Positions 9,104-51,573 of a DNA stretch of 58,227 nucleotides are shown piece after piece. The notes under the pieces are model-generated. The model had not been told where the DNA came from, did not search any database, and saw only the letters and a program-made list of their open reading frames with translations. The stretch's first letter is position 1. Every line of letters starts with the position of its first letter. The stretch covers positions 1 to 58,227 of the IMG/VR virus record IMGVR_UViG_3300027708_003611; one strand, 5' to 3'. This stretch comes from a virus (Duplodnaviria; Caudoviricetes). The translations under genes and the position numbers were made by a program.

Positions 9104-10285
9104 ATGTCTAAAATTAAAAAAAAATCTACACCTATAGATAATGTTAAAGTAAATAAAATTGTACCGCATTATTTACCTACCGGTAATAGCAAATATTACG
9201 AGGCTTCACAGAGTCAAAATCATTTTCCTGTTGGAGTATATTTTGAAAATAAGTTTAATACTGCGCCTTGTACATACGAGGTAGATAAGGAAATATCTAA
9301 AGATATTGTACCGTTTTTAGAAGAAAATGGCGAGCTCATTTACGAACACATACATGTACCTTCTAATAAGCCTGGTTCAGCTGTTTATGATACAGGTAAT
9401 TTTTGGGATGAATCTGAAATAACAGAGAATAAGGTATTTGCATATAAAGATACGGTTGTTTATCTGCGAACCGCTACATCTCGCAGAATCAAAAAAGAAG
9501 ATAGTCATTACACTATATGTATAACGTATAAACCTGGCAATTCAAACCATATTGAGGACTTTGATAGATTTTTTATTAAAGAAGAAATTAAAAACGTTAT
9601 CTTTACAATTATGAAAGATGATCACGGAGGTATTCGTTTTGATCCTTTTGAAGTTACTATACCAGATGATTATAGTATTAAAGAGTGTTATGAACCGGAG
9701 TTTGAGTCTATACACAATACAATTGTCAGTAATTTAAATCAAAACGATTCAGGTCTTTATCTATTTCATGGGGACCCAGGTACTGGCAAGACAACATATA
9801 TTAAATATCTCTCATCTCTTATTAAGCGTGATCTTATCTATGTACCAACGAGCTTTGTAGACTGTATTGCTGATCCTTCTTTTCTTCCTGCTTTATTACA
9901 TAAGAAGCATTCAGTTCTTATTATAGAAGATGCAGAAAAGGCTCTTCTTGCTCGAGAGCCTGGTGATAGTTCCTCATCCTTAGTTTCTACTATTTTAAAT
10001 TTAACAGACGGTATTATGGCGAATGTGTTTAAACTTTCTATTATTGCTACTTATAATTCCCCGCGTCAAACTATTGATAAGGCTCTTCTTCGTAAAGGAC
10101 GTTTAAAAATGGAGTATAGATTTGATAAGCTTTCTATTGAAACAGCTCAAAAAATTATGAATAGTGTAAAACCTGATTATAAAGTTACAGAGCCAATGTC
10201 GTTAGCTGAAATATACAATATAAATGTTACTGATCATTGTAATACAAAAGATTTAGTAGAAGAAAAAAGAATGGGTTTCTTTTAA
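9104..10285 (+). CDS. AAA+ ATPase
   Basis: GDPGTGKT, IIEDAE, ILNLTDG, IDKALLRKGR. Confidence 0.9.
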   Translation: MSKIKKKSTPIDNVKVNKIVPHYLPTGNSKYYEASQSQNHFPVGVYFENKFNTAPCTYEVDKEISKDIVPFLEENGELIYEHIHVPSNKPGSAVYDTGNFWDESEITENKVFAYKDTVVYLRTATSRRIKKEDSHYTICITYKPGNSNHIEDFDRFFIKEEIKNVIFTIMKDDHGGIRFDPFEVTIPDDYSIKECYEPEFESIHNTIVSNLNQNDSGLYLFHGDPGTGKTTYIKYLSSLIKRDLIYVPTSFVDCIADPSFLPALLHKKHSVLIIEDAEKALLAREPGDSSSSLVSTILNLTDGIMANVFKLSIIATYNSPRQTIDKALLRKGRLKMEYRFDKLSIETAQKIMNSVKPDYKVTEPMSLAEIYNINVTDHCNTKDLVEEKRMGFF

Positions 10286-12189: not shown

Positions 12190-12522
12190 TATAATAAAAA
12201 TAAAAGGTATTGTTAAAAAATAACCAAATATTATACACGATATAAACGTTAACCACATACATAAACATATAGGACAGGTTATTACTTTAAGTAAAAACAG
12301 TGTTAAATTGCTTTTTGTACTATCTTTATAGGTAACGTATAAAAACTGTGGAAAACTTAATGTGTTAGTAAGTTTATAGTTAGTTATTGTTTGTTTATTT
12401 ACATTAAAAAGAATGCAATATTCTACAAAAGCGTTGGTTTTAAACCAAATAAAGAGAATACTTACAATAAAGGCTATTAAATTACAAAAAACAAGCATAA
12501 CTACTATAAATATATTATACAA
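12148..12522 (-). CDS. membrane protein with CxxC
   Basis: hydrophobic segments, ITCPICLCMW. Confidence 0.55.
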   Translation of the reverse strand: MYNIFIVVMLVFCNLIAFIVSILFIWFKTNAFVEYCILFNVNKQTITNYKLTNTLSFPQFLYVTYKDSTKSNLTLFLLKVITCPICLCMWLTFISCIIFGYFLTIPFIFIISLFVYFQLCKFVD

Positions 12523-12527
12523 TAATT

Positions 12528-12989
12528 ATGAAATTTGATTTACTTTTCAACCAAGTGTTTTTAACTGAAGCAGACAATATTAATATGCTTAGTGAAGACG
12601 ATCGCTCTAGTGTGGCTACTGCTGATACTGATATACCTGAAGTCGATCCTACACACAGTGATGTTGAAGGTGTACCTACTCCTGATAACTACGGTGTTGA
12701 AGACGCTCCAGTTATTACTCCCGCTGGTAATGCTGAAACACTTCTTAATTACGCTGAAAAAATTGAGCAATTTATTAAGGAGCTTAATGATCCTAGTGAA
12801 GGTTCTTTAAATAAGCTTATTACAGATTTAGATTATAAAGGTAGTTTGTTTGATGGAATTACTAGAACATTATCTGCTGATATTATTAATGCAGCAAAAC
12901 AATTATCTGAAATATCTCAAGCTCTTAACGGTTTTGCAATTAATTCAAAAAAGCGCGCTAAAGATTTAGCTATTAATCAAGGACAGTAA
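12528..12989 (+). CDS. acidic hypothetical protein, possible head internal protein
   Basis: TATAAATA upstream; N-terminal MKFDLLFNQVFLTE. Confidence 0.6.
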   Translation: MKFDLLFNQVFLTEADNINMLSEDDRSSVATADTDIPEVDPTHSDVEGVPTPDNYGVEDAPVITPAGNAETLLNYAEKIEQFIKELNDPSEGSLNKLITDLDYKGSLFDGITRTLSADIINAAKQLSEISQALNGFAINSKKRAKDLAINQGQ

Positions 12990-14266: not shown

Positions 14267-16240
14267 TTATCTTGGTCCAGCGTTTAAGAAGTTTCCGGCT
14301 CCAGCAAAATTTAAACCTTGTTGTGCTGCAGCTCCCAAGCTATTCATTCTCTGCATAACACCGGGAGATTCTTTTTGATAATCACATAAACGTTTAATAT
14401 TATCAATTAATCTTTTTGCTTCATTTGCGGCTCTAGCTTCTTTTATTAAAGATATTTCTTTTAAATTATAAATTGTATCAGGCTTGGTATCTTTTATATT
14501 ATCTACTTCGTAAAGTAAGTTACTTATATATGTTTGTAAACTAAAACTCTGATTAAGCTGTGTAGGTGCTGGTAGAGCTAATTGTTTTGAAGGCTCAGGT
14601 AAGGCTAATTTTTCAGGTGGTTCAGGCAATTTAAGTTGTTTATTAGCAGGCGCAGTTAGCACTACTTTCCACTGTTGCGCTGATTGTTGAGGGTTAATTT
14701 CTACTATTTGACCGTCTGGACGAATAGCTAATGGATATTTACCACCGTATGTTAATTTAGGATACTCACTGTATCCAAGCTCCGGTGTTAGTACTTCTCC
14801 TCGCTCTGGAGAAAGAGCTGTAGATGAAGGAGGTATAGGAGCACCTGGTTCTGGATTATCAGCTTTAGTAGGTAAGATTCCCTTAGTTACAAAATCTATA
14901 AATCCTTGATCAACTGCTGTGTCTTTTATCCAACTAAATTTAGAAACATCGACCGCTCTCTTAACAGCAGCAGCTATTTCTTTTGATATATCAACAACAT
15001 TAGCTTCAGTTATTAAATCTCCAAATATATTATTAAATATATTATAACATTCAGGTAAGCTAGGTTTTAAATTGCTTAAACCAGGTATTAATACTTCCCA
15101 GTTATCAGGTGTTACGCCGTGTTCAACTCTAAGTAAAGCACCATCGTAGCGAACAGCTAATGGAAATTGCTCTACCTGAACAAGTGTTTGATCTATCTTT
15201 CGCCACATTTGAGGCGGTACCCCGCTTTTTATTACCGCTAAAGTTAAATCTGGAAAAACAGCTAAGAAATTTAAATCTTTTGTTATAATTAAATCCCAAT
15301 CTTTACCAACGGTTACAATTTGAGCGTCAGGGCGAAGTTCTAAAGTACCGTCAGGGCGAAGTGCTAGTGGATATTTATCTCCCTCTGGTAGTTCAGGTGT
15401 ATTACCACCAGGTAATTGAGGTTGGTTTGGTCTACCGGGTAGTTGAGGAGGAGTACCGGGCCCTGGTTGAGGTGTACCTGACTCTGTAGTAGGGTGTATT
15501 AAGGCATCATATAACTCTCTAGCATATATAGCAATAAGAATTATATCTCTTATATGTAAATTACCTTCAACTAATTCAGCAAAATCTGATGTAATGGGTA
15601 AATTACCAGAAGCATACTGAGCTGTTTTATTAAAAATATTATACAATAAAGTTGTAAATGGTTGAGATGGATTTTTAAGAGCTAACACTCTTTTTACAAT
15701 ATCTGTACGCTTTTTTACAATATCCTGTACAGCGGGTAAAATGCATAAATTTTCTATAGTTGTATAAGCTGTACTTGCTAATTTATTTGTATCTGCGGTT
15801 CTTTTAGCTTCAGATGCTATAATACTTTTATTTACAGGGCTATAAATACTATAATCTAAATCGCTATTTTTCCATTCAGTAATAACTTTTAAACACTCAC
15901 TTTTGTTCGCTCCGGTATTAATATACGACTCTACGGCATTTATAAATGTAATAACATCGCTTGCATTAATACCTTTTGTATCTGTACTACGAATTCGTCT
16001 AAATAGATCAACTAATGGTGCAAGCTTAACATCATACTCATTAGGTGAAGGTGCAGGGTTTGAGCTTATACCAACATTAAGAGCTTTAAATAATGGCTCT
16101 CCTGGTTTAGGTAAACCTGTAGATAATTGAATAGATTGATTTTTATTATTATAAGCAGCAATTACTTCTTTATACCAAGAAGGTACTATACCTTCAGCTT
16201 CAATAAGTAAATTGTTTACAATATTATCAAAATTAAACAT
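14267..16240 (-). CDS. large Pro-rich protein with internal repeats, probable virion/internal protein
   Basis: late promoter upstream; repeated (KY/QF)PLA.R.DG; P/Q-rich linkers. Confidence 0.65.
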   Translation of the reverse strand: MFNFDNIVNNLLIEAEGIVPSWYKEVIAAYNNKNQSIQLSTGLPKPGEPLFKALNVGISSNPAPSPNEYDVKLAPLVDLFRRIRSTDTKGINASDVITFINAVESYINTGANKSECLKVITEWKNSDLDYSIYSPVNKSIIASEAKRTADTNKLASTAYTTIENLCILPAVQDIVKKRTDIVKRVLALKNPSQPFTTLLYNIFNKTAQYASGNLPITSDFAELVEGNLHIRDIILIAIYARELYDALIHPTTESGTPQPGPGTPPQLPGRPNQPQLPGGNTPELPEGDKYPLALRPDGTLELRPDAQIVTVGKDWDLIITKDLNFLAVFPDLTLAVIKSGVPPQMWRKIDQTLVQVEQFPLAVRYDGALLRVEHGVTPDNWEVLIPGLSNLKPSLPECYNIFNNIFGDLITEANVVDISKEIAAAVKRAVDVSKFSWIKDTAVDQGFIDFVTKGILPTKADNPEPGAPIPPSSTALSPERGEVLTPELGYSEYPKLTYGGKYPLAIRPDGQIVEINPQQSAQQWKVVLTAPANKQLKLPEPPEKLALPEPSKQLALPAPTQLNQSFSLQTYISNLLYEVDNIKDTKPDTIYNLKEISLIKEARAANEAKRLIDNIKRLCDYQKESPGVMQRMNSLGAAAQQGLNFAGAGNFLNAGPR

Positions 16241-16263
16241 AACTGTATATTATTTATACAGTT
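16241..16263 (-). promoter_or_regulatory. gp55-type late promoter (TATAAATA) within a 9-bp hairpin
   Basis: minus strand aactgtata-aataa-tatacagtt-ATG. Confidence 0.65.
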
Positions 16264-16264: not shown

Positions 16265-16897
16265 TTAAGGCATAGTAATTAAAGAGGGTGTATCTTCACC
16301 GTAAGCATTACCGTTTTCTTGAATATAGAGTTTAATTTGATGTATTCTTGTATCTGGAGGACCTTCTAAAGCTATTAATGGAGGACAATCTTCCTTAGGA
16401 AGAAAAGCTGATTTTCCTTTTTCATATGATGAAACAATAGCTTTAAAGATGTTATCAATTTCCTGACGATAGATTGGGTCGATATCTCTTCCTTTACGTT
16501 TCTCTAAAGGTATTTCAGGTCTTAAAGGTAGATAAAAGACTACATCATAACTTTTAAGAGTTTCAGTCGCCAGAAACTTACTATCGATAATAAAATTATC
16601 GCTAACTTTCTGGTTAGCATTTAACCAAAGACTGTAAACGATATTATCTAATACACAACGATCAAATACTATGTGTTTTTCTTCAGAAACACTAGCAAGT
16701 TGAATTTCATCAATTAACGCATTAAGAATACATTTTTGACTCTTCTCATCACCCTTTTTATTAAGCTTAATTTTTTTCTCAGCAATAATATCTCTGTAGG
16801 TTTTTTCTGGTCGCTTATACATCGGCCATGTTTTAAGAAATTCATTAATGAGGGTTGTTTTTCCATTACACTGGGTACCTATGAAGGCAATTTTCAT
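16265..16897 (-). CDS. P-loop NMP kinase-like protein (AAA_28/thymidylate-kinase-like)
   Basis: GTQCNGKTT, FDRCVLD; directly downstream of queE. Confidence 0.75.
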   Translation of the reverse strand: MKIAFIGTQCNGKTTLINEFLKTWPMYKRPEKTYRDIIAEKKIKLNKKGDEKSQKCILNALIDEIQLASVSEEKHIVFDRCVLDNIVYSLWLNANQKVSDNFIIDSKFLATETLKSYDVVFYLPLRPEIPLEKRKGRDIDPIYRQEIDNIFKAIVSSYEKGKSAFLPKEDCPPLIALEGPPDTRIHQIKLYIQENGNAYGEDTPSLITMP

Positions 16898-16898
16898 A

Positions 16899-17663
16899 TT
16901 ATACTTTAAGTGCCTTGTTCCAAATTAACAACTGTAATCTAGGACTAAAATTAACGTGCATAGCTTTAGCATATTCAGCTACAGCAGGTGCTTTTTCAAC
17001 GTGTTCTTCCCTAGACCCACAACAGGGCATAAACCATATACGATTTAAAGGTATATTAATTCCTTCTTCATCTTTTACATACTTGCGCCAAATCTCATCA
17101 ATATCCTCTGATCGGTTAATAACAAATTTAAACCCTGAGCCTTCAGCTACGTGCCATTTAAGAACATCAGGCTTGTATGTTTTTTCCTCTGGATCACCAT
17201 TTGATGTAAGCTTTGGTGATGTCGTAAAAGTAACTAAATATTGCTCCCATTCAGATGACGGAATGAGTGTAGCGTTAGTCTCAAAATCAATACGTGGTAC
17301 AAAATTATAACGTTCTTGAAATGCTGCAATAAATTTAAGAAGTTGCTTTTCTTGAATTAACGGTTCACCACCTGTAAGTTTTAAGATTGCATTGTTACGC
17401 AGATATTCAATGTAATTATTATCTTCCATGAGTTTAAATATTTCATCAAACGTCATTTTATTCTTCACGGACCAAGAAATAAATGAATCACATCCATTAG
17501 GTGAGTCTTCTGAAGCAAACCCTTTACAAGTAAGATTACACATTGACATGCGCATAAAAACAGAAGGTACACCTACGTATTCTCCCTCTCCTTCAATAGT
17601 ATAAAATATTTTATCGTCAGATAAAAATAATGTTTCTGTGTCAGTTGATATCATATTATTCAA
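16899..17663 (-). CDS. queE: 7-carboxy-7-deazaguanine synthase (radical SAM)
   Basis: FYTIEGEG..G.P.VF.R, CNLTC...CDS, TGGEP, ETN, SPK, SPRLQ. Confidence 0.9.
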   Translation of the reverse strand: MNNMISTDTETLFLSDDKIFYTIEGEGEYVGVPSVFMRMSMCNLTCKGFASEDSPNGCDSFISWSVKNKMTFDEIFKLMEDNNYIEYLRNNAILKLTGGEPLIQEKQLLKFIAAFQERYNFVPRIDFETNATLIPSSEWEQYLVTFTTSPKLTSNGDPEEKTYKPDVLKWHVAEGSGFKFVINRSEDIDEIWRKYVKDEEGINIPLNRIWFMPCCGSREEHVEKAPAVAEYAKAMHVNFSPRLQLLIWNKALKV

Positions 17664-18108
17664 AATAAATTGCTGAGTTATTCTCGTGTTCGAACACTTC
17701 TACTTTTTCAACCCAACAGCGACCGTTTGTTTCGAGTTTAATAAAATCATTAGCAGTATTATAGCACCATTCAGCAGTCTTTTCAATACCTACTGCTTCC
17801 ATAATTCTAAGCTGACAACCTCTTTGATTGTTAAGCTCCTGCCAAAAAGGAAGAAGCGGATCGTCTTGTGCTATACATAGAGTATGATCAAACTGTTCAG
17901 TAAGTTTTTTCTTTAAAGATTTAAGGTTACCAAAATCTACAATCCAGTTTTTATCATCAAGTTCTTTACCTGCAAAATAAAATTTTGCTTTAAGCTGATA
18001 ACCGTGAATAAATTGACAATGACTATGTACAGCTCTCCATTGTCGAAAAGCACATGATCCTAATTCAATTAATTTAGTACTCTGCCAAGTAGGTTGTTTA
18101 ATTCTCAT
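17656..18108 (-). CDS. queD: 6-carboxy-5,6,7,8-tetrahydropterin synthase
   Basis: SHCQFIHGY, VDFG.LK, FDHT, VEVFEH. Confidence 0.9.
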   Translation of the reverse strand: MRIKQPTWQSTKLIELGSCAFRQWRAVHSHCQFIHGYQLKAKFYFAGKELDDKNWIVDFGNLKSLKKKLTEQFDHTLCIAQDDPLLPFWQELNNQRGCQLRIMEAVGIEKTAEWCYNTANDFIKLETNGRCWVEKVEVFEHENNSAIYFE

Positions 18109-18407: not shown

Positions 18408-18441
18408 ACAACTATAATACTATACTTTGAGTATAGTTCAA

Positions 18442-19848
18442 CTATTTAGCAAGATATTGCTTGAGTTCATTAATGCCTTTTGGACCGATAAAAATTTTAG
18501 CAAGTTCAGTATAAAATTTACCCGTATCTTTTAAATCGTAAGCGTTTTTTGCTGTTCGATAAAAATCAAACACTCTATTTTTTTCTATATCTAACTCCAT
18601 TTTTGCCTTAGCAACAGCATCTATATTATTAGGATCAATACTATCAATTACTTTGTCACACTCTTCAAGATGCTGTTGTACAGCTTGCTTAATACTATTA
18701 AAAGTTTTATCAAAATTCTTACCTTCATAGGCAAGTTTTAGCTCTGGTGTTTCATTAAACGCGTCTTGAAATAGAACATTAATAATTTCATCAATTGTTT
18801 TATATTGCTTTTCTGTTTCAACAACTTTACTAACTCTTTTTAAAGCAGAAAACGAATCCGAAGAGTGTAGTATTATATCTATTTTATCCTTAAAAATAGA
18901 TTTTAAATTTTTAAGAAAATCTGATCCTGCGTGCAACTCTTCACGCTGACGAGCAAATTCTGGGTCAACAAACTTAGCTATAGCTCCGTTTTTAATGTTT
19001 CTAACAATAACTCCTTCAAGTTTATCACTGCCAAGGCTTGATGGCACTTGAGTAACCTGGTTAATAAGTGAATTACTATACTTAGATAATAGAGAGCGTA
19101 GCTCTTCATCAGCTAAAGCTCTATTTTTTACAGTATCTGCATCGCGTTTTTTATTTAAAAACAATTCTTTATTAATAGATAAAAATGTTTTAATTTTGTT
19201 TTTTAAATTGTTTGAATTAAGATTAACATCAAGTACTGTTTTAATATAAATTTTCCATCCGTCTTTATTATCAAAAAAAGTTTTAAATTGCTTTAATATA
19301 TTCATACCAACTTTAGTGTTGGTAATATTAATACCTTTTTTATCGTTAGGACTATTCAAGAACAGAAAAAATAAATAAATAGCACCGCGTCCAATTTTTT
19401 CTTTCTTGTATTGAAGTACATTTGCTTTTTCGTCACCAGAAAACAACTCACCAAAAATTTGTAAACCTGTAAAATTTGAGTTTAACTGTTTTAATTCGCT
19501 GTTATTTTTTCTTACAATCTGTTCGTACCAATCTTGAAACGAATTATCTTCGAGATAATTAAAAAGCTTAGCAAAAACTATATTATGAGGATATACTTTA
19601 GCTAATTCTTCAAAATGCTTAGTATCGACTTGAGGTTCTTGTGTTTTTGATTTAACAAACATCTGACCACTTTCATCTAAACCAAATGAAACGTTATAAC
19701 CGTCTACTTTTTCAGTAACATCCCACTCTTCATCTTCTGAAAGGAAAAAATCAATAGCTTGTACCGGTGTCATTTTAATAAGATGCGGTATAGAAGGCAT
19801 TTTTATAGCTTCTTTTACTAACATGTAATTACTAAATGATAAATTCAT
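18442..19848 (-). CDS. ATP-dependent RNA-ligase-like covalent nucleotidyltransferase
   Basis: motif I EKVDG, III FGELF, IV EGVIV, V AKF. Confidence 0.7.
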   Translation of the reverse strand: MNLSFSNYMLVKEAIKMPSIPHLIKMTPVQAIDFFLSEDEEWDVTEKVDGYNVSFGLDESGQMFVKSKTQEPQVDTKHFEELAKVYPHNIVFAKLFNYLEDNSFQDWYEQIVRKNNSELKQLNSNFTGLQIFGELFSGDEKANVLQYKKEKIGRGAIYLFFLFLNSPNDKKGINITNTKVGMNILKQFKTFFDNKDGWKIYIKTVLDVNLNSNNLKNKIKTFLSINKELFLNKKRDADTVKNRALADEELRSLLSKYSNSLINQVTQVPSSLGSDKLEGVIVRNIKNGAIAKFVDPEFARQREELHAGSDFLKNLKSIFKDKIDIILHSSDSFSALKRVSKVVETEKQYKTIDEIINVLFQDAFNETPELKLAYEGKNFDKTFNSIKQAVQQHLEECDKVIDSIDPNNIDAVAKAKMELDIEKNRVFDFYRTAKNAYDLKDTGKFYTELAKIFIGPKGINELKQYLAK

Positions 19849-21023
19849 ATTTTAACGTTTTTAGATTCTAGTTCTTTTATTTTTATTTGATTAATTCCGG
19901 GTACATGTGCTAAGAAAAACTTAATACCAGTAGCTGCACTATCAGGTTTTACTTGATTTGGTACTTTTTGTTTTAAACCGTCTATATATTTGTCAAAAAT
20001 GTGCTGTTTTCTTGTAGAGTCTTCTAAACTTGATACAAATTCAATCATTTTTACAAAATGTTTGATACTTCTGGTATCTTTAAAGCCAAGAAGCTTAGTA
20101 ATTATATTCATAGCGTTGTAAGGAATTACCTGCGGTATACCATTTTTAGACATATCAACGATTTTACTAATTCTATCGTAAGTTATACCACCTTTAGAAT
20201 AACTAGAGGGTTTTCCGTCTTTTAAAAATATAACTCTATATGTAAAACCGTCACCAGTTAATGAAGGTTTTATTTGAAAATCTAATTTAAATTTATTTCC
20301 GTTTTTTTCTTTAAAATTTTTATAAATTAATGAATTTTCAACTTCTTTGCGTATTAAATCTTCAACGTTTTTATCAACAGGGTGAGTGGCGATGATAGCA
20401 GATTCAAGTAAATCTCGTTGAGCACCGTTAATTCCGTGAGCTGTATCAGCTGCACTACTGAATTGTTTATGAGCGAAGAAATCTCCCTTCTTTGTCATAT
20501 TAACAATGTCAATTTGAATTATTTGTTCAGAATCCGTTAACACTACTGCTGTGAAAACTTCATTAGTAGCTTGTTCAGCAGCGTATTTTTTAGGATTATC
20601 ATCCATAAGTGTACGAGCTATCATTTCAGCAGTTACTCCTTCCTTATATTTTACGTCTAAATCAATATCGCCAAATACTTTCTTGTTGTTTAGTGCATGT
20701 TTTACAGTTTCGATATCTTCGATTTCATCAACAATTTCGTTTATATGTTTTTTACCAGAAGCTACAGCAAAAAGTCGTGATGAACCTAATATATATTGCG
20801 GTTCATCTTCTTCGATTAAATTATGAGTTAATAATATTTGACGAATTTTATCAATTTCAGATAAAACTGCCTTATTGGGCTGAGCTGGAGCGTAAAACAA
20901 ATTAGAGTTTCCAGATAACTCTCTTAATTTTTGAGTTTGATTAATAGCTGATTGACCACCTTCAACTAAAAGAGATGAAATGTGTTTTTTATTAAAAAAA
21001 TTACTAAAGGACTCCTGTAACAT
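19845..21023 (-). CDS. Pol-beta-superfamily nucleotidyltransferase-like protein
   Basis: LGSS, GDIDLDV, QIDIV: GS + DxD + third Asp. Confidence 0.65.
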   Translation of the reverse strand: MLQESFSNFFNKKHISSLLVEGGQSAINQTQKLRELSGNSNLFYAPAQPNKAVLSEIDKIRQILLTHNLIEEDEPQYILGSSRLFAVASGKKHINEIVDEIEDIETVKHALNNKKVFGDIDLDVKYKEGVTAEMIARTLMDDNPKKYAAEQATNEVFTAVVLTDSEQIIQIDIVNMTKKGDFFAHKQFSSAADTAHGINGAQRDLLESAIIATHPVDKNVEDLIRKEVENSLIYKNFKEKNGNKFKLDFQIKPSLTGDGFTYRVIFLKDGKPSSYSKGGITYDRISKIVDMSKNGIPQVIPYNAMNIITKLLGFKDTRSIKHFVKMIEFVSSLEDSTRKQHIFDKYIDGLKQKVPNQVKPDSAATGIKFFLAHVPGINQIKIKELESKNVKI

Positions 21024-21031
21024 ACATAGTG

Positions 21032-21421
21032 TTACTTGGCAGGTGTAGAGGGAGTATTAACGTGATTAATATAACCTGTAATGATCTTCTGATGATTGGG
21101 ATCAGCTAGTACTTTAGTGACGTCTGCTGCAGACTTAGTATCTGCTAAAGCATTTATAGTGGTAGCAGTTTGAGGAGAAGTTAAGCTAAAAGGAGTAGCT
21201 GTATTAGGAGCTGTTCCAGGCTTTGGAGGTTGCTGTTGATTAGTAGGATTACCAACATTAGCAGGGTTAGCAGAAGAAGTTGCTGTAGCAGGGTTAGCTG
21301 TATTTGTTACATTTGTATTAGTAGTTGGAGCTGTAGTACTATTAATAGATGGTGCGCTTTGAGGGGTAACAGGTCCGAGCTCTGTTAACATTGTATTTAA
21401 AAGGGATTCAAATTTAGACAT
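21032..21421 (-). CDS. T/P/N-rich low-complexity late protein
   Basis: TAAATA upstream; MSKFESLLNTMLTE then a mucin-like stretch. Confidence 0.65.
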   Translation of the reverse strand: MSKFESLLNTMLTELGPVTPQSAPSINSTTAPTTNTNVTNTANPATATSSANPANVGNPTNQQQPPKPGTAPNTATPFSLTSPQTATTINALADTKSAADVTKVLADPNHQKIITGYINHVNTPSTPAK

Positions 21422-21496
21422 ATATTGTATTTAATCTTAAACTCTATATTTTTATAGAACATTTGTAAGGTGCCGTAAAGGCTTTTAATTCATTTA

Positions 21497-22012
21497 TTAT
21501 AAGTTGTCTGAAAAATCTACTGTTCCTGAAGAAAAAGTTTTACTTTTTTTATAATTTTTAATAAAAGTGTATAACATGTTTTTATTAGCAAACTTATCAA
21601 TATTTTGATTGTTTATTTTATTTTTATTAATTGCACTTAAAACAGACATTTCAATATCCGGAGAATTAAATGATGTACATTCACACCACGGCGATGGAAA
21701 TACATTAAGTACTTTTTTTAATTTAATATTTGTAAACGGTATGCCTTTGGTAATGGGATAAACAACCAGAGCTTTATTATACTTACTAGGGCACTCCTTA
21801 AGAGCTGCACAAAATTTTTCTAAACAATAATGATAAAAAAATCTAGTTACATCTGTTGAACCTTTACCATTAACTTTTAATGGTATATTGTATTTTTTAC
21901 ATACAAAAAGTGTTTCTCTTATAGCTTGTATTAAAAGCGGTTCAAAGTCAATAGCACACACTCTACTACCGTGAAATTCTTTATAATTCATATTACTGAA
22001 GCATTGTTTCAA
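21497..22012 (-). CDS. hypothetical protein
   Basis: 171 aa ORF in a minus-strand operon. Confidence 0.6.
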   Translation of the reverse strand: MKQCFSNMNYKEFHGSRVCAIDFEPLLIQAIRETLFVCKKYNIPLKVNGKGSTDVTRFFYHYCLEKFCAALKECPSKYNKALVVYPITKGIPFTNIKLKKVLNVFPSPWCECTSFNSPDIEMSVLSAINKNKINNQNIDKFANKNMLYTFIKNYKKSKTFSSGTVDFSDNL

Positions 22013-22604
22013 TTTGTTCTAATGTAAGTCCGTCATGTAATGCTTCTTCTGTTATTTGATGTAACTGATTAAAAACATTTTTTATCTTTTCTTCGTATTC
22101 TAAAACTTGTAAATGGTTATTTTTATTGTAATTTAACTTATTTTGATTTTCAAGTAATGAAGTTTGATTAATAAGATCTAATTTTGAACCGAGATACTTT
22201 TTAATTTTTAAAATGTTTCTAACATAAGGAGAATAAGCAACTTTTTCTTGTTCAGTTAAAGGTTCTTTAATTTTATTACCGTTATTATCGATTATACCTA
22301 ACTTAAAGGCAATAAAATTTTCATAATTCTTGTTTAATTCTTTTATTAAAAATTGATTTTGTATGTTTTGTTGTAATGTTTCACCAAACATAGAATTAAA
22401 ATTAATACCGTGCATATGAATTTTATCAAACGGGTTTAAATGACAGCCTCTACCGTAATTTGGAGAACCGCAATATGAGCACTTTTTTGGATCATCCGGG
22501 TGAAAGTGAACTCCGTTTGGTGCATATTTACACCCCTTACCGTAGCTTGTTGAACCACAATACAAACAGCGATTAACTTTTTTAGCTACTAGATTCTTAT
22601 TCAT
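21993..22604 (-). CDS. hypothetical protein with two tandem Cys/His zinc-finger-like repeats
   Basis: CLYCGS..YG.GC...P...H.H twice; AFKLGIIDNNG segment. Confidence 0.7.
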   Translation of the reverse strand: MNKNLVAKKVNRCLYCGSTSYGKGCKYAPNGVHFHPDDPKKCSYCGSPNYGRGCHLNPFDKIHMHGINFNSMFGETLQQNIQNQFLIKELNKNYENFIAFKLGIIDNNGNKIKEPLTEQEKVAYSPYVRNILKIKKYLGSKLDLINQTSLLENQNKLNYNKNNHLQVLEYEEKIKNVFNQLHQITEEALHDGLTLEQIETMLQ

Positions 22605-23023
22605 TTCTTTATATTTAATAGATTTTTTGGAGGTCTACCGATTCTTAAATTTAAAATACCGTTATAATAATCATCTTTTAACAAGACTTCTCTACCTATT
22701 TGTTCTTTGACTTCCTCGTAAGCCAATTCCCATTTTGAGCCGCAAGTTTTAAGTATCTCAAACTTAAAATTCTCTTTTCCAATTTTAATGATATCATTAT
22801 TTAAATCAACTGAAGAACTTGTATAAAACTTCCAATCCGACTCTTTAAACTCAATTCTTTTGTTTTTTTTACCTTTTAGCGGTTTCCGCTTAAATTTTGA
22901 AATACATTGTTTTTTACCAATATATTTCTTGTTATTTGTAATATTTGTTATTAGGTAAATAAAACCAAATATTTTTTCGTTTATTTCAACATCTTTCCAC
23001 AGAACCCAGTGACCTGTATCCAT
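22601..23023 (-). CDS. GIY-YIG endonuclease
   Basis: GFIYLITN...KKYIGKK, YYN. Confidence 0.8.
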   Translation of the reverse strand: MDTGHWVLWKDVEINEKIFGFIYLITNITNNKKYIGKKQCISKFKRKPLKGKKNKRIEFKESDWKFYTSSSVDLNNDIIKIGKENFKFEILKTCGSKWELAYEEVKEQIGREVLLKDDYYNGILNLRIGRPPKNLLNIKK

Positions 23024-23262
23024 TATTTTTTACGTTTGCGACGTTTTGATTTAGATTTACTACCGTAAATTGAGTTTGAAATCCTACTTCTTGTAATAAC
23101 TTTAGAACCTAAAGGTTTAGCTACTCTAATGTCTTTATTGGCATATGTATCTGCTGAAAGCTGTGAAGCTGTGGATGTGACACCGGCTCCAAGTACACTA
23201 CCTGCACCACCAGCTACATTCATATTTTCATTTAAAATGCTGTTAACAATGCTATCAAACAT
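23023..23262 (-). CDS. small late protein with basic C-terminus
   Basis: start reassigned to ATG 23262 (MFDSIVNSILNE) after TATAAATA; avoids overlap with uvsY. Confidence 0.6.
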   Translation of the reverse strand: MFDSIVNSILNENMNVAGGAGSVLGAGVTSTASQLSADTYANKDIRVAKPLGSKVITRSRISNSIYGSKSKSKRRKRKK

Positions 23263-23316
23263 ATTCACATTAATATTTATAGTTGTTTTATTGCAATTAA
23301 TAGCTAAAATGGGGTT

Positions 23317-23739
23317 ATGGATGTAACCCCTGAAGAAATTAAAGAATCTCTTTTTGAAAAATATAACGAAGAGATTAAAAAGTATGTAGCTGTAGACGAG
23401 TTCAATATGAAGCAAATTCAAATGGATTTACCCGGTGCTCGTCATTATTGGGTAGGACGTTTAATGTTTCATAAACAAGAAATTTTAAAACTTGTAAAAT
23501 TACGTAAACAAGCAGTTATTAAACTTTCAGATAAAATTCAAGCTGAGTTACCCGTAGGTACTAGTATCAGGACTAGGGAAATGGCAGCTGATAATCATCC
23601 AACTATTCAGAAAATAGATGAATTAATTGCTGAAAATGAAATGCTAGTTGAGTATCTAGGTAAAATTGAATCAAACTTTAGAAGTATAAGTTATGATATT
23701 AAAAATTTAATTGAAATTGTAAAGCTTGAAACAACATAA
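23317..23739 (+). CDS. uvsY: recombination mediator UvsY-like
   Basis: helical 140 aa, C-terminal YDIKNLIE, immediately upstream of uvsW as in T4-like phages. Confidence 0.7.
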   Translation: MDVTPEEIKESLFEKYNEEIKKYVAVDEFNMKQIQMDLPGARHYWVGRLMFHKQEILKLVKLRKQAVIKLSDKIQAELPVGTSIRTREMAADNHPTIQKIDELIAENEMLVEYLGKIESNFRSISYDIKNLIEIVKLETT

Positions 23740-25232: not shown

Positions 25233-25802
25233 ATGGCCACCAAAAAAAATAATGATGAAGATTTTTACATGGATGATTTATCTTTAGAAATAGATGATAT
25301 AAAACCAAAAAAAGACCCTAAGAAGAGAGTAAGACGTACAAAGGAAGAATTAAAACCTAATTATGTAGACCCTATTTATATGGAGGTATGTATTAAAAAG
25401 TATTACGAAACAGGTGTACTTGACAACGAATTAGCTGATATGATTCAGAAAATCGGTACACGGCTAGGCTACGCGCAAAATTTTATTAACTATTCTTATA
25501 AAAGTGAAATGATTGGTGATGCAGTAATTAAAATGATTACTGCTTTAACACGTCATAGGTTTAAATGTGATAGTGGTTATAATCCTTTTTCCTATTTTAC
25601 AAAAGTAGCGTATAGAGCGTTTCAGAACAGAATAAAGAAAGAAAAGAAAGAGCATGACACTATTCATCGATATCAAAACGAAGTATATAGTTTATTAGAG
25701 GAATCAGGTCAGCTGCCCTCGAGAAAAAATTCTCACTTAGAAGACGATAGTAATAGTTCCCTCTACGACGAAAGCCTTTCTACTGAAAGCAGTAATGATT
25801 AA
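25233..25802 (+). CDS. late transcription sigma factor (T4 gp55-like)
   Basis: NFINYSY..EMIGDA, NPFSYFT....AF..RIKKEKK. Confidence 0.9.
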   Translation: MATKKNNDEDFYMDDLSLEIDDIKPKKDPKKRVRRTKEELKPNYVDPIYMEVCIKKYYETGVLDNELADMIQKIGTRLGYAQNFINYSYKSEMIGDAVIKMITALTRHRFKCDSGYNPFSYFTKVAYRAFQNRIKKEKKEHDTIHRYQNEVYSLLEESGQLPSRKNSHLEDDSNSSLYDESLSTESSND

Positions 25803-26853
25803 TTTTTCTAGCAACAAAGTAGCCTGTATTAGTGATTTACATCTAGGTGTACATCAAGATTCAGCTGTCTGGCATGATATAGCCATTAACTTTGCTCACT
25901 GGCTTAATAATACGTTAAGAGATAAAAATATTAATGACATTATTATTGCCGGTGATATATTTCACAATAGACACGAAATAGGTGTTAATACTATTCACGC
26001 TACACATAAATTTTTCGATATATTAAAAGATTATAACATTATAGCTATAACCGGTAATCATGATTGTTTTTATAAAGATAAGTCTGATGTTAATTCTATA
26101 TCTATTCTTAATAATAAAAATATAACCGTATATCAAGACTTAAGAACTTATTTTATTAATAATAAATCATTTACATTCTGCCCTTGGGGCACTACACTTG
26201 ACAGTATACCTAAAAGTGATGTAGTAATAGGTCATTTTGAAATTACAAATTTCAAAATGAATCAACATAAGATATGTGATCACGGCTTTGATACTGAGAA
26301 ATTAATTGATAAAGGTAAAATTATTATTACGGGTCATTTTCACTACCGTGAGCATAGAAAATACTCAAACAATAGAAGTATTCTTTATCTTGGTTCACCA
26401 TACGAACTAGATTTTGGTGATAGAGATCAAGTGAAGGGTATATCTATTCTTGATACTGATACTCTTGAAATTGAATTAATTGAAAATAATATAACACCTA
26501 AGCATAAAAAAGTTAAAATTTCAGAACTTACAGATGGTTCTGTTAAGTTAGAAGATTTATCATTAATAGTTTCTAATAACTTTATAGATCTTAGTATTGA
26601 TAAAAATCTTAACTCACAAGCATTAGATTTAATTTTATCAAAATTTAATCAATGTAAACCGCTACATGTAAGAACAAATTTTAATATTTTTGAAAATATT
26701 CAATTATCAGCTACAGATATGGAAAACTTCAGTTTTGATATTGAATCTTCGTTACATGAATTTGTAAACTTACTTGAAACTAAAGTAAACAAAAAAGATA
26801 TTTTAGATAAATGTTTAGATCTCTACAAACAATCTTTAATTACAAATGAATAA
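25795..26853 (+). CDS. recombination endonuclease subunit (gp47/Mre11-like)
   Basis: SDLHLG, GDIFH, GNHD, GHFH, YLGSPYE. Confidence 0.92.
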   Translation: MINFSSNKVACISDLHLGVHQDSAVWHDIAINFAHWLNNTLRDKNINDIIIAGDIFHNRHEIGVNTIHATHKFFDILKDYNIIAITGNHDCFYKDKSDVNSISILNNKNITVYQDLRTYFINNKSFTFCPWGTTLDSIPKSDVVIGHFEITNFKMNQHKICDHGFDTEKLIDKGKIIITGHFHYREHRKYSNNRSILYLGSPYELDFGDRDQVKGISILDTDTLEIELIENNITPKHKKVKISELTDGSVKLEDLSLIVSNNFIDLSIDKNLNSQALDLILSKFNQCKPLHVRTNFNIFENIQLSATDMENFSFDIESSLHEFVNLLETKVNKKDILDKCLDLYKQSLITNE

Positions 26854-27658
26854 AATAGGAATTGGAATTATAACTTGCGATAGACCCAAATATTTAACAG
26901 AGTTGTTAAATACACTTAACACTCAAGCTTCTAATATTAATGAGGTAATAATTGTTGATGATGGTGAGACTTCATCTGTTGAAAACATTAACAAAACAAA
27001 TTGGAACGTTTACAAAACTACAGGTAAAATCGGTGTCGGTAAATCAAAAAATATTGCATTTGATTATCTTTTAAAAAAAGACTGTGAATATTTATTTTTA
27101 TTAGAAGATGATATTATTATAAAAGATACAAATATTTTTCAAAAATATATAGAAGCATCTAATTTATCAGGTATACAGCATTTTAATTTTGCATTTCACG
27201 GTAATGATAACTATTTACCAAATGGAGCGCCCGCTATAAGACTAAAAGTAGAATATAGTAAAGATATAGCTGTCTGCTTCTACCCGAATGTATATGGTGC
27301 TTTTAGTTTTTACACTAAAAAGTGCTTAGAAACTGTTGGATTAATGGACCCGATATACTATAACGCTATGGAACACGTTGATCATACATTTTTTATAGCT
27401 CAGGCAGGCATGACATCACCATTTAGATGGTTTGCTGATATAGCTGATAGTAACAAGTATATTGAAGAATTAGATAAGAATCATTCTGGTAGTGAAATTA
27501 GACGAGATGAAAAATGGGCATCTAATTTTCAAAAAGCAGTAGCAATATTTGCAAATAAATCTAAAATTAATGTAACAGGTCCTACAGATGTCTTTTGGAC
27601 TAAAGAACAAACTATTGATATTGTAAAACAAATAAGAAAGAAATATAGAAAAAAATGA
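26846..27658 (+). CDS. GT2-family glycosyltransferase
   Basis: IITCDRP, IVDDG, LLEDD, EHVD. Confidence 0.8.
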   Translation: MNKIGIGIITCDRPKYLTELLNTLNTQASNINEVIIVDDGETSSVENINKTNWNVYKTTGKIGVGKSKNIAFDYLLKKDCEYLFLLEDDIIIKDTNIFQKYIEASNLSGIQHFNFAFHGNDNYLPNGAPAIRLKVEYSKDIAVCFYPNVYGAFSFYTKKCLETVGLMDPIYYNAMEHVDHTFFIAQAGMTSPFRWFADIADSNKYIEELDKNHSGSEIRRDEKWASNFQKAVAIFANKSKINVTGPTDVFWTKEQTIDIVKQIRKKYRKK

Positions 27659-27766
27659 ATGAAGCACTTATACATAAAACATATAATATATTTTTAGATA
27701 ATCTACCTCACTGTGATAATCTCACACAAGAACATCTTAAAGTAGTTTCCCGTGATGAAAAATAAT

Positions 27767-28558
27767 ATGGAAAAAGGTAAAATTGGTATAGGTATTGTAA
27801 CATACAATTCAGAAGATTATTTTAAATCTCTTTATAAATCTATTCCACTTAATAAAATTAATGAATTAGTAGTTGTTAATGGTGGTGATCATTATAAAGA
27901 AGACTACAAGTGTCATTGGATTCAACATAGCGTTAATTGTTACCCTGCTATTTGTAGAAACGACGCTATTAATTTTTTAATGAATAGAGGCTGTGAACAT
28001 ATTTTTCTTATTGAAGATGATATGATTATTAAAGATTTTAGTATTTTTGAAAAATATATTAAAGCATCAGAAATTTCTGGATTGAAATATTTTTCCTATG
28101 TTAGTACTTCTTGGGAATCTGGAAAACCAGGTAGCAGAACCCCTAGACTCACTATAGAATATACACCAGAAATAAGTATTTCATTTTATAAAAATATGTG
28201 CAATGAATTTACGTATCATCATTATACAGCTTTTGAGAGTACTGGTCTGTATGACACACAATTTAGAGATCCATTTGATATTGATATGGCGTATAGAGAG
28301 TCTAAAGAAGGTCATGCAGCTCCCTTTTGGTGGTTTGCAGATGTAACAGGGTCAGATGTTTTGATTGAGAATAATCCCGTTGCCGTTAGTCGCTTACAAT
28401 CTGCAAATCGCTCAGACGGTTCTAGAGAACAAAGAATTCAAGAACAATGGTCAAAATTTGTTGATAAACACGGACATCATGTAACACAAATCCCTGATTT
28501 GTCTAAAGATAAAACTCTTCAACAGCTTATTATGAGAAGTAAAAATTACGGAAAATGA
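27767..28558 (+). CDS. GT2-family glycosyltransferase (paralog of upstream gene)
   Basis: IGIVTYN, LIEDD, shared IF.KYI.AS..SG..F and WFAD motifs; ATG 27767 preferred. Confidence 0.78.
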   Translation: MEKGKIGIGIVTYNSEDYFKSLYKSIPLNKINELVVVNGGDHYKEDYKCHWIQHSVNCYPAICRNDAINFLMNRGCEHIFLIEDDMIIKDFSIFEKYIKASEISGLKYFSYVSTSWESGKPGSRTPRLTIEYTPEISISFYKNMCNEFTYHHYTAFESTGLYDTQFRDPFDIDMAYRESKEGHAAPFWWFADVTGSDVLIENNPVAVSRLQSANRSDGSREQRIQEQWSKFVDKHGHHVTQIPDLSKDKTLQQLIMRSKNYGK

Positions 28559-30201
28559 AAATATCTATTGGTATAAACGGGTTTAAGAATTTAAGTCTTC
28601 TTAATAAGAGAGAGTTATTCTGTATTGAAAGCTTATTAAAGATAAAAAAAGACAATATTAATTTATATAATATTTGTTTTGAGAATGAAAATGTTAACTA
28701 CGATGGTTTTACCACTCTCAATAATCTTAAAGTAAAATCAAACACTCTAATACATGAATATTTTCAACACGAAGGATTAACAAACGAATATAATGCTAGA
28801 AAAAACGAGATAGATAATAACAATAAAGCTTTACCATCTGTAAAAGAAATATTTGATGTACTAGCTAGTACAGACTGTGATTATTTTTTGTTTTTAAACA
28901 ACGACATTATTGTTTCAAATAGACTCTTAAAAGAAATTGACGATTCTGAAGCTTACGTTATTAGCCGTATGCATATATATGATATTGAATCTTTAAACGA
29001 AACACCTAAAATTGAATCATATTCTGTACACGGTTTTGATGTGTTTCTTATAAAAAAAGATATTTGGTTACAAATAAGAAATAGTTTTGAAGATCTTATC
29101 TTAGGACGCTTTTATTGGGATACGTATTATGCAACAATGCTTGCTACCCTCGTTAAAACGAAATTTATTAATAAACTACCCCCTGTATGTTTTCATATAG
29201 AACATAACAGCACATCAAGTCAAGATACAATTGAAAATTATTATAATGAAGATGTGTTTAAGCGTAATACTTTAATTGGTCAACTATGGTTTAGTTATGT
29301 ACAGCAAGTATTAATGAAGCGACCTACAGTAAACAACTGTAAGTGGTATCAACCTTTTTCTAATGAAATCGAACTAGAACAAAAATGTTTTAATCCGTTT
29401 CCTGAGACAACGATAACTTTTAATAATAGTTTTACAAGGTATAAGGATGTACCTAACGACGGGTACGATATTTTTATACCCGTCGCACCAAAAGATGAAT
29501 GTAAGATACCTTATTTACTCGAAAGCATTTACAAGTATCAGACATTTAATAAAATATACATTGTATCTCCAAACAAGATAGAATCATTTAAAGACAGTAA
29601 AGTTAATTTTTACTTAGATAAAGATATATTACCTAATATAAATAGAAATAGTTTTTCATATAGACCGAACTGGATGTACCAGCAAATGTTAAAACTTTTT
29701 CAAAATATAACTGAAAAAGATTATTATCTAGTCCTAGATAGTGATACTGTTTTATTAAAATCATTAGCGACATTTGATAAAAATCAACCAATTTGGCATT
29801 ACGGTTGGAAACAAAATCATTTTCCTTATTTTTTATATCTTAAAAAAATTTTTAATATATCTAAAGCGTTAGATCATACAGGCATTGGAGATATTGGTTT
29901 TTTTAATAAAACTATTATTAATTCGTTTTTAAGTTATTGTAGTTGCTCTTCTTCAGAAGAATTAATTAATAAAATACAAAGTAATATGAATTTACTATAT
30001 CATTTTTCTGAATATGAAATGTATTGTAATTTTACAAAAACATATTACCCTAATTTATACCAGTACAAACAAATAAAACAGTATAACACTGGTAAAGATT
30101 CTAACATCGGTCAAACATGGAATGATAGTGAAATTATCAAAACTATTAACAATGCAAAACAAACAGACTCTGATTTACTTTTAATGCATACTTGGAATTA
30201 A
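28555..30201 (+). CDS. two-domain GT-A-like protein (C-terminal DUF6492-like)
   Basis: FLNNDII; W..QQ.LKL, LDSDTV, FSEYE.Y. Confidence 0.65.
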   Translation: MKISIGINGFKNLSLLNKRELFCIESLLKIKKDNINLYNICFENENVNYDGFTTLNNLKVKSNTLIHEYFQHEGLTNEYNARKNEIDNNNKALPSVKEIFDVLASTDCDYFLFLNNDIIVSNRLLKEIDDSEAYVISRMHIYDIESLNETPKIESYSVHGFDVFLIKKDIWLQIRNSFEDLILGRFYWDTYYATMLATLVKTKFINKLPPVCFHIEHNSTSSQDTIENYYNEDVFKRNTLIGQLWFSYVQQVLMKRPTVNNCKWYQPFSNEIELEQKCFNPFPETTITFNNSFTRYKDVPNDGYDIFIPVAPKDECKIPYLLESIYKYQTFNKIYIVSPNKIESFKDSKVNFYLDKDILPNINRNSFSYRPNWMYQQMLKLFQNITEKDYYLVLDSDTVLLKSLATFDKNQPIWHYGWKQNHFPYFLYLKKIFNISKALDHTGIGDIGFFNKTIINSFLSYCSCSSSEELINKIQSNMNLLYHFSEYEMYCNFTKTYYPNLYQYKQIKQYNTGKDSNIGQTWNDSEIIKTINNAKQTDSDLLLMHTWN

Positions 30202-30202
30202 T

Positions 30203-30940
30203 ATGAATAAAAAAATTATTTTAAATTTAGATGTATGGGGAGGTTTAGGAGATAATTTACAAATGTCTACTATACCAAGACGTTTTTTTGAAAAATTTGG
30301 CTACAAAGGAGTTTATATTTCTAATAGTATTCCTTGGCGTAATAACGAAATAAAAAACCTCGTTTGGGATAAAAATCCCTATATAGCTGGTTTTACCAAT
30401 AAAAAAGGTATTAATATCGCTGATAACAATCTTATTAGATACGACGGCTCTACTCATTGGATAGCTCTCATGGAAAAAATATTTAAATTTGAAGCACCGT
30501 ACGGGAAAATACCTGAACTGTATTATGATTTTAATAAAGAAGATATCTTTAATGTTAAAAATAAGATAATTGTTGACATTACCTGTAGTAACGAAAATAA
30601 TACAATGGATAAAATTTATCATCGTCAAAATATGAAAAAATATTTTGACAGTTTTAAAGAGCAATTAACAGTTGTTAAATTTAATAATTTAAAAAACGAT
30701 AAAACATTTACAGATTATACTAAAGAAATTATTAACAAACCGGTAGAGTATATTGAAATAAACAATATTAATGAATACTGTGAAATAATACGTAACTGTA
30801 AAAAATATATTTGCTCTCTTTCAGGAAATCATTGTCTAGCTGCAGCTATAAGAAATAATTTAACTTGTTTTATACCTGAAATATATTATAATATGAAATA
30901 TTTTGTCTTTGAAGGTGACTTTGAGTACATAAAAATTTAA
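30203..30940 (+). CDS. putative GT-B glycosyltransferase (GT9-like)
   Basis: WGGLGDNL; SG..CLAAA. Confidence 0.55.
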   Translation: MNKKIILNLDVWGGLGDNLQMSTIPRRFFEKFGYKGVYISNSIPWRNNEIKNLVWDKNPYIAGFTNKKGINIADNNLIRYDGSTHWIALMEKIFKFEAPYGKIPELYYDFNKEDIFNVKNKIIVDITCSNENNTMDKIYHRQNMKKYFDSFKEQLTVVKFNNLKNDKTFTDYTKEIINKPVEYIEINNINEYCEIIRNCKKYICSLSGNHCLAAAIRNNLTCFIPEIYYNMKYFVFEGDFEYIKI

Positions 30941-30944
30941 TAAA

Positions 30945-31808: not shown

Positions 31809-31811
31809 AAT

Positions 31812-33208: not shown

Positions 33209-33241
33209 TTTTTTGTTACATTATAATATAATACGTAATAT

Positions 33242-33856: not shown

Positions 33857-33862
33857 ATTATT

Positions 33863-34354: not shown

Positions 34355-34357
34355 AAA

Positions 34358-35188: not shown

Positions 35189-35222
35189 TTGATTCTTAAC
35201 ATATTTTTATTATACTAAACTA

Positions 35223-51560: not shown

Positions 51561-51573
51561 ATAAGGTTACTTC

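Follow-up and report, generated by a model that had tools for sequence, protein, structure and literature searches.

What would a phage do with a nucleotidyltransferase and an RNA ligase encoded back to back, and would it carry them into the cell inside its own head? The question is raised by three minus-strand genes in a 58,227-base viral record of IMG/VR (IMGVR_UViG_3300027708_003611), called the window here when the whole stretch is meant; its G+C content is approximately 30% and its completeness estimate is 24%. The first gene (21032-21421) encodes a low-complexity protein of 129 amino acids (aa), the second (19845-21023) a predicted Pol-beta-fold nucleotidyltransferase (NTase) of 392 aa, and the third (18442-19848) a predicted Rnl2/REL1-type ATP-dependent RNA ligase of 468 aa. 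The open reading frame (ORF) coordinates confirm the tight spacing that an initial annotation of this DNA had pointed out, with an 8-nucleotide (nt) gap between the small gene and the NTase gene and 4 nt (ATGA) shared by the NTase and ligase ORFs. Judged from its gene content, the phage is T4-like, and we read the 392-aa and 468-aa genes as encoding one half each of a bifunctional enzyme conserved among uncultured T4-like phages. In this reading, to which as a whole we give slightly less than an even chance, the NTase-ligase would repair RNA by adding nucleotides and then sealing, and its leaders would direct it into the phage head for packaging and ejection.

The two enzymes are linked throughout the family. 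An exhaustive profile search yielded 57 cluster representatives of the NTase at 50% identity, and the ligase lies directly downstream of the NTase in all 22 viral loci found via the NTase. These loci represent approximately 15 distinct sequences, with L008-L012 near-identical and L018, L019, L021 and L022 likewise. The pairing of a Pol-beta NTase with an RNA-ligase-fold enzyme, proposed in the initial annotation, is thus firmly borne out by co-occurrence, and elsewhere the two are fused: in every locus for which ORFs were listed (17/17), NTase and ligase form a single ORF, complete at 824-870 aa in 14 cases and running off the contig end in the remaining three. Both domains are present in all 11 of the 57 representatives that reach at least 774 aa, and in P0003 as well. 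The split form is found in the window and in an approximately 52% identical pair, P0002 and P0007, from other contigs. A distant lineage on a 236-kb contig (L041) also has the NTase and ligase as adjacent ORFs, both leaderless. The complete relative G001 (195,888 bases; loci L028-L037) encodes three ligases, namely the fused NTase-ligase, a second PF09414 RNA ligase and a PF01068 DNA ligase (ligase-related coordinates 9613-10149(-), 26187-26747(+) and 163693-164031(+)). The presence of the other two argues that the role of the fused enzyme is specialized. A replicative DNA ligase role was set aside, since G001 has its own PF01068 ligase and the unit has late promoters.

Seven fused relatives (956-1397 aa) continue beyond the ligase. 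Their post-ligase part matches a cytidylyltransferase-like model in six (P0031, P0040, P0041, P0044, P0048 and P0052; not P0047), significantly in P0048 and weakly in the other five. In three-part relatives of 1081-1397 aa, the cytidylyltransferase-like domain, which carries a HIGH motif, is followed by more unmatched sequence, an architecture resembling that of polyvalent phage proteins. Polyvalent proteins are multi-domain effectors thought to enter with phage DNA, and they share with the phage enzyme the joining of several unrelated catalytic domains in one late-encoded polypeptide. The phage enzyme differs in having no zincin peptidase or MuF domain, and its processing would be by the prohead protease. 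The polyvalent-protein study reports that no link between its 2H phosphoesterase domains and RNA ligases was seen (PMC5512222).

The NTase has no Pfam hit at E ≤ 1 and no match among the PHROG families. Its catalytic motifs are G80-S81, D119-x-D121 and D172, and the spacing from GS to DxD, 38 residues, is unusually long. Six residues (G80, S81, G118, D121, D193 and G200) never vary among 37 aligned divergent members, and conservation reaches at least 90% at D119 and D172. In the AlphaFold2 (AF2) model (pLDDT 72, with residues 1-22 below 50), D119, D121 and D172 lie on predicted strands 120-124 and 167-175. The best 50 matches of this model in VIA-align, a search independent of Foldseek, are all Pol-beta-fold enzymes or close kin, headed by Pol mu (Z 7.9, where the tool's caution line is 8; root-mean-square deviation 3.6; 120 residues aligned) and followed by CutA, TdT, TUT1 and Pol beta. 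Foldseek found nothing in PDB at E ≤ 0.001, the top of its weak list being 3wfp at E 0.012, and in BFVD it found only uncharacterized phage proteins, for example from Agrobacterium phage Atu_ph07. Nothing meaningful came from comparing the NTase profile with PDB sequences (hmmsearch/phmmer). From its motifs and predicted fold, we assign the NTase to the Pol-beta-fold superfamily, as an undescribed family that we place within no named one. Identity as a cyclic-nucleotide synthase (CD-NTase) was set aside, given the lower VIA Z of such enzymes (5.4-6.9) and a ligase fusion that suits end-joining over signaling.

The ligase matches PF09414 over model positions 1-171 (37.4 bits, cut-off 27, E 3.6e-9; 33.6 bits in a six-frame search) and also matches phrog_548. 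Motifs I, III, IV and V are represented by K47-x-D49-G50, E134, E278-G279 and K292. Across a 23-row alignment K47, D49, E134, E278 and G279 are invariant, and the motif V lysine is present in every row, shifted by one or two columns in a distant group. Both signatures read in the initial annotation, GS/DxD/D for the NTase and KxDG for the ligase, are therefore present here and conserved in relatives. The AF2 model (pLDDT 83.6, residues 1-11 disordered) returned 15 Foldseek matches at E ≤ 0.001, all of them RNA ligases. REL1 (1xdn, E 5.1e-5), T4 Rnl2 (2hvq, E 6.2e-5) and the Naegleria nick-sealing ligase lead the list (E 5e-5 to 7e-4, identity approximately 12-15%), which also includes 5cot; DNA ligases trail at E of about 3e-3, and T4 Rnl1 is found at ranks 31-32 (E 6.8e-3). 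The Rnl1 family is absent from the Pfam scan, and phmmer with the ligase found nothing among PDB sequences. The structural comparison bears out the ligase fold, while for the NTase it gives Pol-beta kin in all VIA rows at Z of 7.9 or less and no PDB match by Foldseek at the same E threshold. The phage ligase shares with T4 Rnl2, REL1 and the Naegleria ligase its PF09414 match, the motif I-V residues and the best fold matches, and differs from them in its low identity and in a helical C-terminal part of approximately 170 residues (about 300-468) that is unmatched by the listed structures. By family match and predicted fold it is an Rnl2-like ATP-dependent RNA ligase rather than an Rnl1-like one, and the analogy to T4 Rnl1 drawn initially finds no support.

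What would such a pair act on? In the editosome, a terminal uridylyl transferase and the REL ligase also add nucleotides and then seal. The nearest precedent is RlaP with its RNA ligase, again a Pol-beta-fold NTase genetically coupled to an RNA ligase. According to two reports, RlaP, which is linked to RNA ligases, adds 1-2 nucleoside monophosphates to an RNA 3'-OH, and the proposal is that bases lost to nucleases such as RloC are replaced in this way ahead of ligation (PMC12776372, PMC7824862). The shared logic would be the restoration of nucleotides at a damaged RNA 3'-OH, followed by sealing. The phage system differs in that NTase and ligase are usually one polypeptide, in the 38-residue GS-DxD spacing, in a cleavable-looking leader, and in having no match to the RlaP model PF10127 in the window or the near-complete relatives G001 and G002 at E ≤ 10, a search in which control genomes do match.

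The initial annotation had favored a different division of labor, with a CCA-adding enzyme completing phage tRNAs that lack CCA and an Rnl1-like ligase rejoining anticodon loops cut by PrrC-type nucleases. Three of the seven window tRNAs (Ile-UAU, Asp and Lys) indeed lack an encoded CCA, as had been stated, and the other four encode it; CCA-adding enzymes also occur among the fold matches of the NTase (3h37 and 4wby, Z 5.8-5.9), and the position of 3wfp at the top of the weak Foldseek list counts in the same direction. Host CCA-adding enzymes normally complete CCA-less tRNAs, however, so the three tRNAs are no evidence for CCA rebuilding. The class II CCA/poly(A) polymerase model PF01743 is unmatched in the window and the two near-complete relatives (G000, G001 and G002), and the NTase itself has no Pfam hit. 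Poly(A)/poly(U) polymerases and family X polymerases outscore the CCA enzymes in VIA. Fusion to a ligase places the NTase at a break to be sealed, which argues for action within an RNA rather than at the tRNA 3' end, and T4 Rnl1 ranks 31st among the ligase fold matches. The initial annotation had also seen no Pnk, and none is clear in the window, where AAA_33 matches stay below the cut-off; PrrC-type ends would thus go unhealed. We regard the CCA/Rnl1 scheme as very improbable, and an RlaP-like add-and-seal enzyme, its substrate uncertain, should replace it. The tRNA-Ile (UAU) call at 4674-4764 is 91 nt long, well above the usual length, and may hold an intron or insertion.

DNA or DNA/RNA-hybrid breaks would be another class of substrate. 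Here the family-X-like domain would fill a gap or add ribonucleotides to a DNA 3' end, and the ligase would seal the ribo-terminated nick, much as in bacterial LigD or viral Pol X with a ligase, so that the phage genome is repaired on entry or during packaging. The longest VIA alignments of the NTase fit this idea, being to Pol mu, TdT, Pol beta, Pol lambda and African swine fever virus (ASFV) Pol X (Z 6.9-7.9 over 102-120 residues). So do two Atlas results with TM under 0.5, to be taken as leads only, namely clusters of family X polymerases and, from giant viruses, a cluster in which Pol X domains are fused with an NAD-dependent DNA ligase domain. In addition, Rnl2-type ligases seal nicks in which the 3' strand is RNA. 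The ligase nevertheless fits RNA ligases better than DNA ligases (5e-5 vs 3e-3) and matches Pfam RNA_ligase, Pfam detects neither the helix-hairpin-helix nor the 8-kDa domain of family X polymerases, and the complete relative G001 already has a PF01068 DNA ligase. Bacterial LigD joins a primase-type polymerase to a DNA ligase; it and viral Pol X-ligase systems resemble the phage enzyme in combining nucleotide addition and ligation within a single protein or operon, and differ in that the folds are unlike and the phage ligase is of the RNA-ligase type. We consider repair of DNA improbable as the function of the pair. The evidence on substrate is divided, as the ligase points to RNA and the longest NTase alignments point to family X DNA polymerases.

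When the enzyme is made bears on whether it could be packaged. The initial annotation had called the three genes a late operon and had noted a TAAATA hexamer ahead of them, which is present at 21428-21433 on the minus strand, 6 nt before the ATG of the first gene. The hexamer by itself is uninformative because it occurs 103 times in this AT-rich window, and the 7-mer at this site, TTAAATA, is one base off the ATAAATA that precedes the window terminase, sheath and other late ORFs. This ATAAATA is much rarer across the window than expected (25 sites vs 58.5 +/- 7.4), and nine of its 25 sites lie 6-15 nt before an ORF start, including those of the terminase, the sheath and three leader-bearing ORFs. 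In relatives the match is exact: ATAAATA stands 5-6 nt before the orthologous small-gene ATG in 7/7 syntenic loci (L002, L003, L006, L007, L013, L014 and L015) and immediately ahead of the fused gene in L004, L008, L016 and L020. The case for late expression is accordingly good for the gene family and weaker for the window copy, whose 7-mer deviates; the trio might also be transcribed from the perfect TATAAATA upstream at 23281-23274. On the other side, the gap after the ligase gene (18408-18441) holds a sigma-70-like promoter on the minus strand for the next gene (TTGAAC-16-TATTAT, 18441-18414). A TTGATT-17-TATTAT, read by eye, is kept at the same post-ligase place in L003, L006, L007, L013 and L014, which indicates that the three-gene unit ends after the ligase.

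Across the window, late promoters of the form (N)ATAAATA are located at 12505-12527, 16241-16258, 23263-23281, 51163-51179, 51557-51573, 53925-53942 and 56901-56917. They end 3-15 nt before start codons, and no Shine-Dalgarno sequence is visible there or in L002-L023. This suggests that late mRNAs of the phage group are leaderless or nearly so.

Each of the three proteins also begins with a segment that resembles a head-targeting leader. The small protein has a 14-residue leader with F4, L7, L8 and L12-T-E14, the NTase has one of 21 residues with F6 and L19-V-E21 ahead of a core that starts at G22, and the ligase has F5 and V11-K-E13. The initial annotation had described a phenylalanine and an L-x-E-like end in all three; the phenylalanine and a hydrophobic-x-E do occur in each, and the ligase ends V-K-E rather than L-x-E. 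The site recurs in relatives. Among 51 NTase-family members that show the conserved core start, seven have Met exactly there and 44 have an N-terminal extension, and in 44/44 of the latter [LIVMF]-x-E immediately precedes the core despite very varied extension lengths (background, 2.3% per position). The first 13 residues of the ligase are homologous to the inter-domain linker of the fused proteins. The Glu of that linker (E13 of the ligase) is conserved at 90% or more, with Ala or Gly as the next residue. A hydrophobic-x-Glu site thus lies beside a disordered segment both at the N-terminus and in the inter-domain linker.

The leader type is shared by six window ORFs (12528, 14267, 18442, 19845, 21032 and 23023). 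Beyond the trio, these are a family-less 657-aa protein on the minus strand (14267-16240; F4, I7, V8, L12 and E14, with a perfect TATAAATA 10 nt upstream), an acidic 153-aa protein of pI 4.2 on the plus strand (12528-12989; TATAAATA 15 nt upstream) and a basic 79-aa protein of pI 10.8 on the minus strand (23023-23262; a 12-residue leader ending L-N-E, with TATAAATA 11 nt upstream). Pfam scans of other leader-bearing proteins gave no clear family. For the 79-aa protein, the ORF list has a 132-aa ORF with a TTG start at 23023-23421. Both its leader-type N-terminus and the perfect TATAAATA at 23281-23274 point to ATG 23262 as the probable true start of the gene, and a terminator-like hairpin (23330-23311) lies just upstream. 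A pattern made from two of the leaders matched 3 of 349 ORF N-termini and none of 1034 internal Met sites, the independent third match being the 657-aa ORF. The leaders at 12528-12989 and 23023-23262, plus several in G001, were found by listing the ORFs behind ATAAATA sites. A broader pattern was present in 7 of 26 ORFs with a late promoter, compared with 16 of the 323 remaining ORFs (Fisher p 6e-4); by position, it fitted 23 of 349 N-termini, compared with 26 of 946 internal Met sites (p 0.002).

T4 provides the model for such leaders. As described in two papers, its capsid targeting sequence is a 10-residue segment that sends internal proteins with nothing else in common into the prohead core; residues 4 and 7 are important for targeting and residues 8 and 10 for processing, and the gp21 protease cleaves after L/I-X-E (PMC9026906, PMC3012670). 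The window leaders closely resemble this sequence: positions 4 and 7 are hydrophobic or aromatic, and the last three residues read hydrophobic-x-Glu. As with the T4 internal proteins and Alt, a short leader is borne by unrelated late proteins (PMC9026906, PMC3012670). The phage relatives likewise encode a gp21-family prohead protease (PF03420; phrog_207), found in 4/4 related records. The capsid protein of G001 has an L-T-E-Ala site near residue 60, the place at which the T4 capsid protein is cleaved. The phage leaders differ from those of T4 in length (12-21 residues or longer, against 10) and in their candidate cargo, an RNA-ligase enzyme; sequence homology between the window proteins and T4 internal proteins was not detected. 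The tagging proposed in the initial annotation gains support from these leaders, and by the analogy to T4, head packaging of the enzymes is a good hypothesis, with the chances roughly even.

The same enzyme could also work without entering the head, as a late-made cytoplasmic add-and-seal RNA repair enzyme. Its N-terminal segment would then form a flexible tail, bind a partner or be a side effect of how translation starts on near-leaderless late mRNA. Consistent with this, the L041 genes are leaderless and 7 of the 51 members start at the core, so the enzyme works leader-free. The late promoters lie 3-11 nt from the ATG, so the first codons may be constrained as RNA, and loose leader patterns are only about 2.5-fold enriched at N-termini. 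Nucleotide constraint would leave unexplained, however, why the junction motif is found in 44/44 cases at a variable distance from the start, why it recurs in the internal linker of the fused forms, and why leaders are enriched among late-promoter ORFs. We consider a purely cytoplasmic enzyme unlikely, if a serious contender. The aromatic N-terminal motifs might also be sliding-clamp (gp45) binding peptides that tether the enzyme to DNA, with no role in head targeting. Some fused forms start with hydrophobic-x-x-aromatic-aromatic followed by a Lys-rich stretch, and this start presumably resembles clamp-binding boxes. Clamp binding would not require the conserved Glu junction, though, and the same leader is found on low-complexity, acidic and basic late proteins that have no enzymatic domain, in genes that carry late promoters. 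This explanation has, in our view, a minimal probability.

If the add-and-seal enzyme is packaged, its action could proceed as follows. The leader, acting like the T4 capsid targeting sequence, would bring the enzyme into the prohead core, together with the T/P/N-rich protein and the other leader-bearing late proteins. A gp21-type protease would then cut after the Glu, and in fused forms also within the linker. The mature enzymes would be ejected with the DNA, making repair available before, or without, phage translation. In the cell, where a broken RNA has lost bases, the NTase would extend its 3'-OH by one or a few nucleotides, after which the ligase would seal the 3'-OH/5'-phosphate nick. 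It is possible, although we think it rather doubtful, that a T4-like lineage loads a leader-tagged RNA repair enzyme into its head, has the protease separate the halves, and by injection reverses the damage done to tRNA or other RNA by abortive-infection nucleases.

Several observations weigh against a packaged RNA repair enzyme. On the enzymatic side, the NTase stays under a VIA Z of 8 and lacks a PDB Foldseek match at E ≤ 0.001, and the family X DNA polymerases among its longest alignments keep DNA a possible substrate. No Pnk-type end-healing enzyme was found above cut-off in the window or G001, so the pair alone would handle only 3'-OH/5'-phosphate breaks, and 2',3'-cyclic phosphate or 5'-OH ends would be unsealable by it. 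On the side of the leaders, the window ligase has V-x-E and not L/I-x-E, the junction Glu could be part of the fold rather than a cleavage site, and a looser leader pattern is not discriminating (12/349 N-termini vs 14/972 internal Met sites). The L041 lineage has a leaderless NTase and ligase, so packaging is not essential to the enzyme. The promoter of the window trio departs from the ATAAATA 7-mer, and no head module is present in the window, a record that is 24% complete, the protease being taken from relatives. Finally, neither the NTase nor the ligase gene is found in any cultured phage: tblastn with the NTase, the ligase, the fused G001 protein and the 657-aa protein gave zero matches among 50,697 GenBank phage records.

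Phages are known to counter anticodon nucleases by repairing RNA in the cytoplasm, through T4 Pnk and Rnl1 or through RlaP with ligases. The weak point of such repair is that its enzymes must be translated by the machinery under attack. An injected, pre-packaged repair enzyme would free repair from that dependence. If the packaging reading is true, this would be the first injected RNA-repair counter-defense, and it would broaden T4-type head cargo past anti-restriction proteins and Alt; in the literature listings that we searched, neither a packaged RNA ligase nor this NTase-ligase fusion was described. Regardless of packaging, the analysis brings out three things: a Pol-beta NTase family that goes unrecognized by Pfam and PHROGs and is joined to an RNA ligase through gene fusion, a candidate targeting leader by which the ejected proteins of uncultured T4-like phages could be predicted, and late promoters that abut start codons.

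The small first gene of the unit has its own pattern of conservation. Its product is 19% Thr, 12% Pro, 12% Ala and 12% Asn, in agreement with the T/P/N-rich protein of the initial annotation, and has no Pfam or PHROG family match. Small Q/P/T/N-rich proteins with the same N-terminus are encoded upstream of the fused gene in L002, L003, L006, L007, L013, L014 and L015, and upstream of the NTase and ligase genes in L041. Ahead of the small gene in the window lies a block (21497-23023) encoding a GIY-YIG-like protein (22601-23023), a Cys-rich zinc-ribbon-repeat protein (21993-22604; phrog_2086) and a family-less 171-aa protein, and this order is kept ahead of the small leader proteins in L003, L006, L007, L013-L015 and L041.

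The T4-like gene content of the window comprises a gp55-type late sigma factor (25233-25802), SbcD-like (25795-26853) and SbcC-like (35223-37016) nucleases, a T4-type DNA polymerase (38309-40852), a primase and a helicase, the large terminase (51574-53325) and the tail sheath (53943-56309). Cultured cyanophages, pelagiphages and rhizobiophages have DNA polymerases that share only about 32% identity with the one in the window. The QueD, QueE and GTP cyclohydrolase genes also belong to the T4-like content. In T4, the SbcD- and SbcC-like genes adjoin each other. In this part of the window (25795-37016), an island of approximately 8 kb with low G+C (26-28%) sits between them and carries at least three glycosyltransferase-like genes, one methyltransferase-like gene and several family-less ORFs. 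Genes for 7-deazaguanine synthesis (QueD, QueE and GTP cyclohydrolase) are located at 16265-18108 and 42458-43923, regions that also hold two AAA_28 P-loop kinases labeled thymidylate kinase in PHROGs. A similar kinase, which might conceivably serve the repair enzyme as a polynucleotide 5'-kinase, is encoded two genes behind the ligase in L041.

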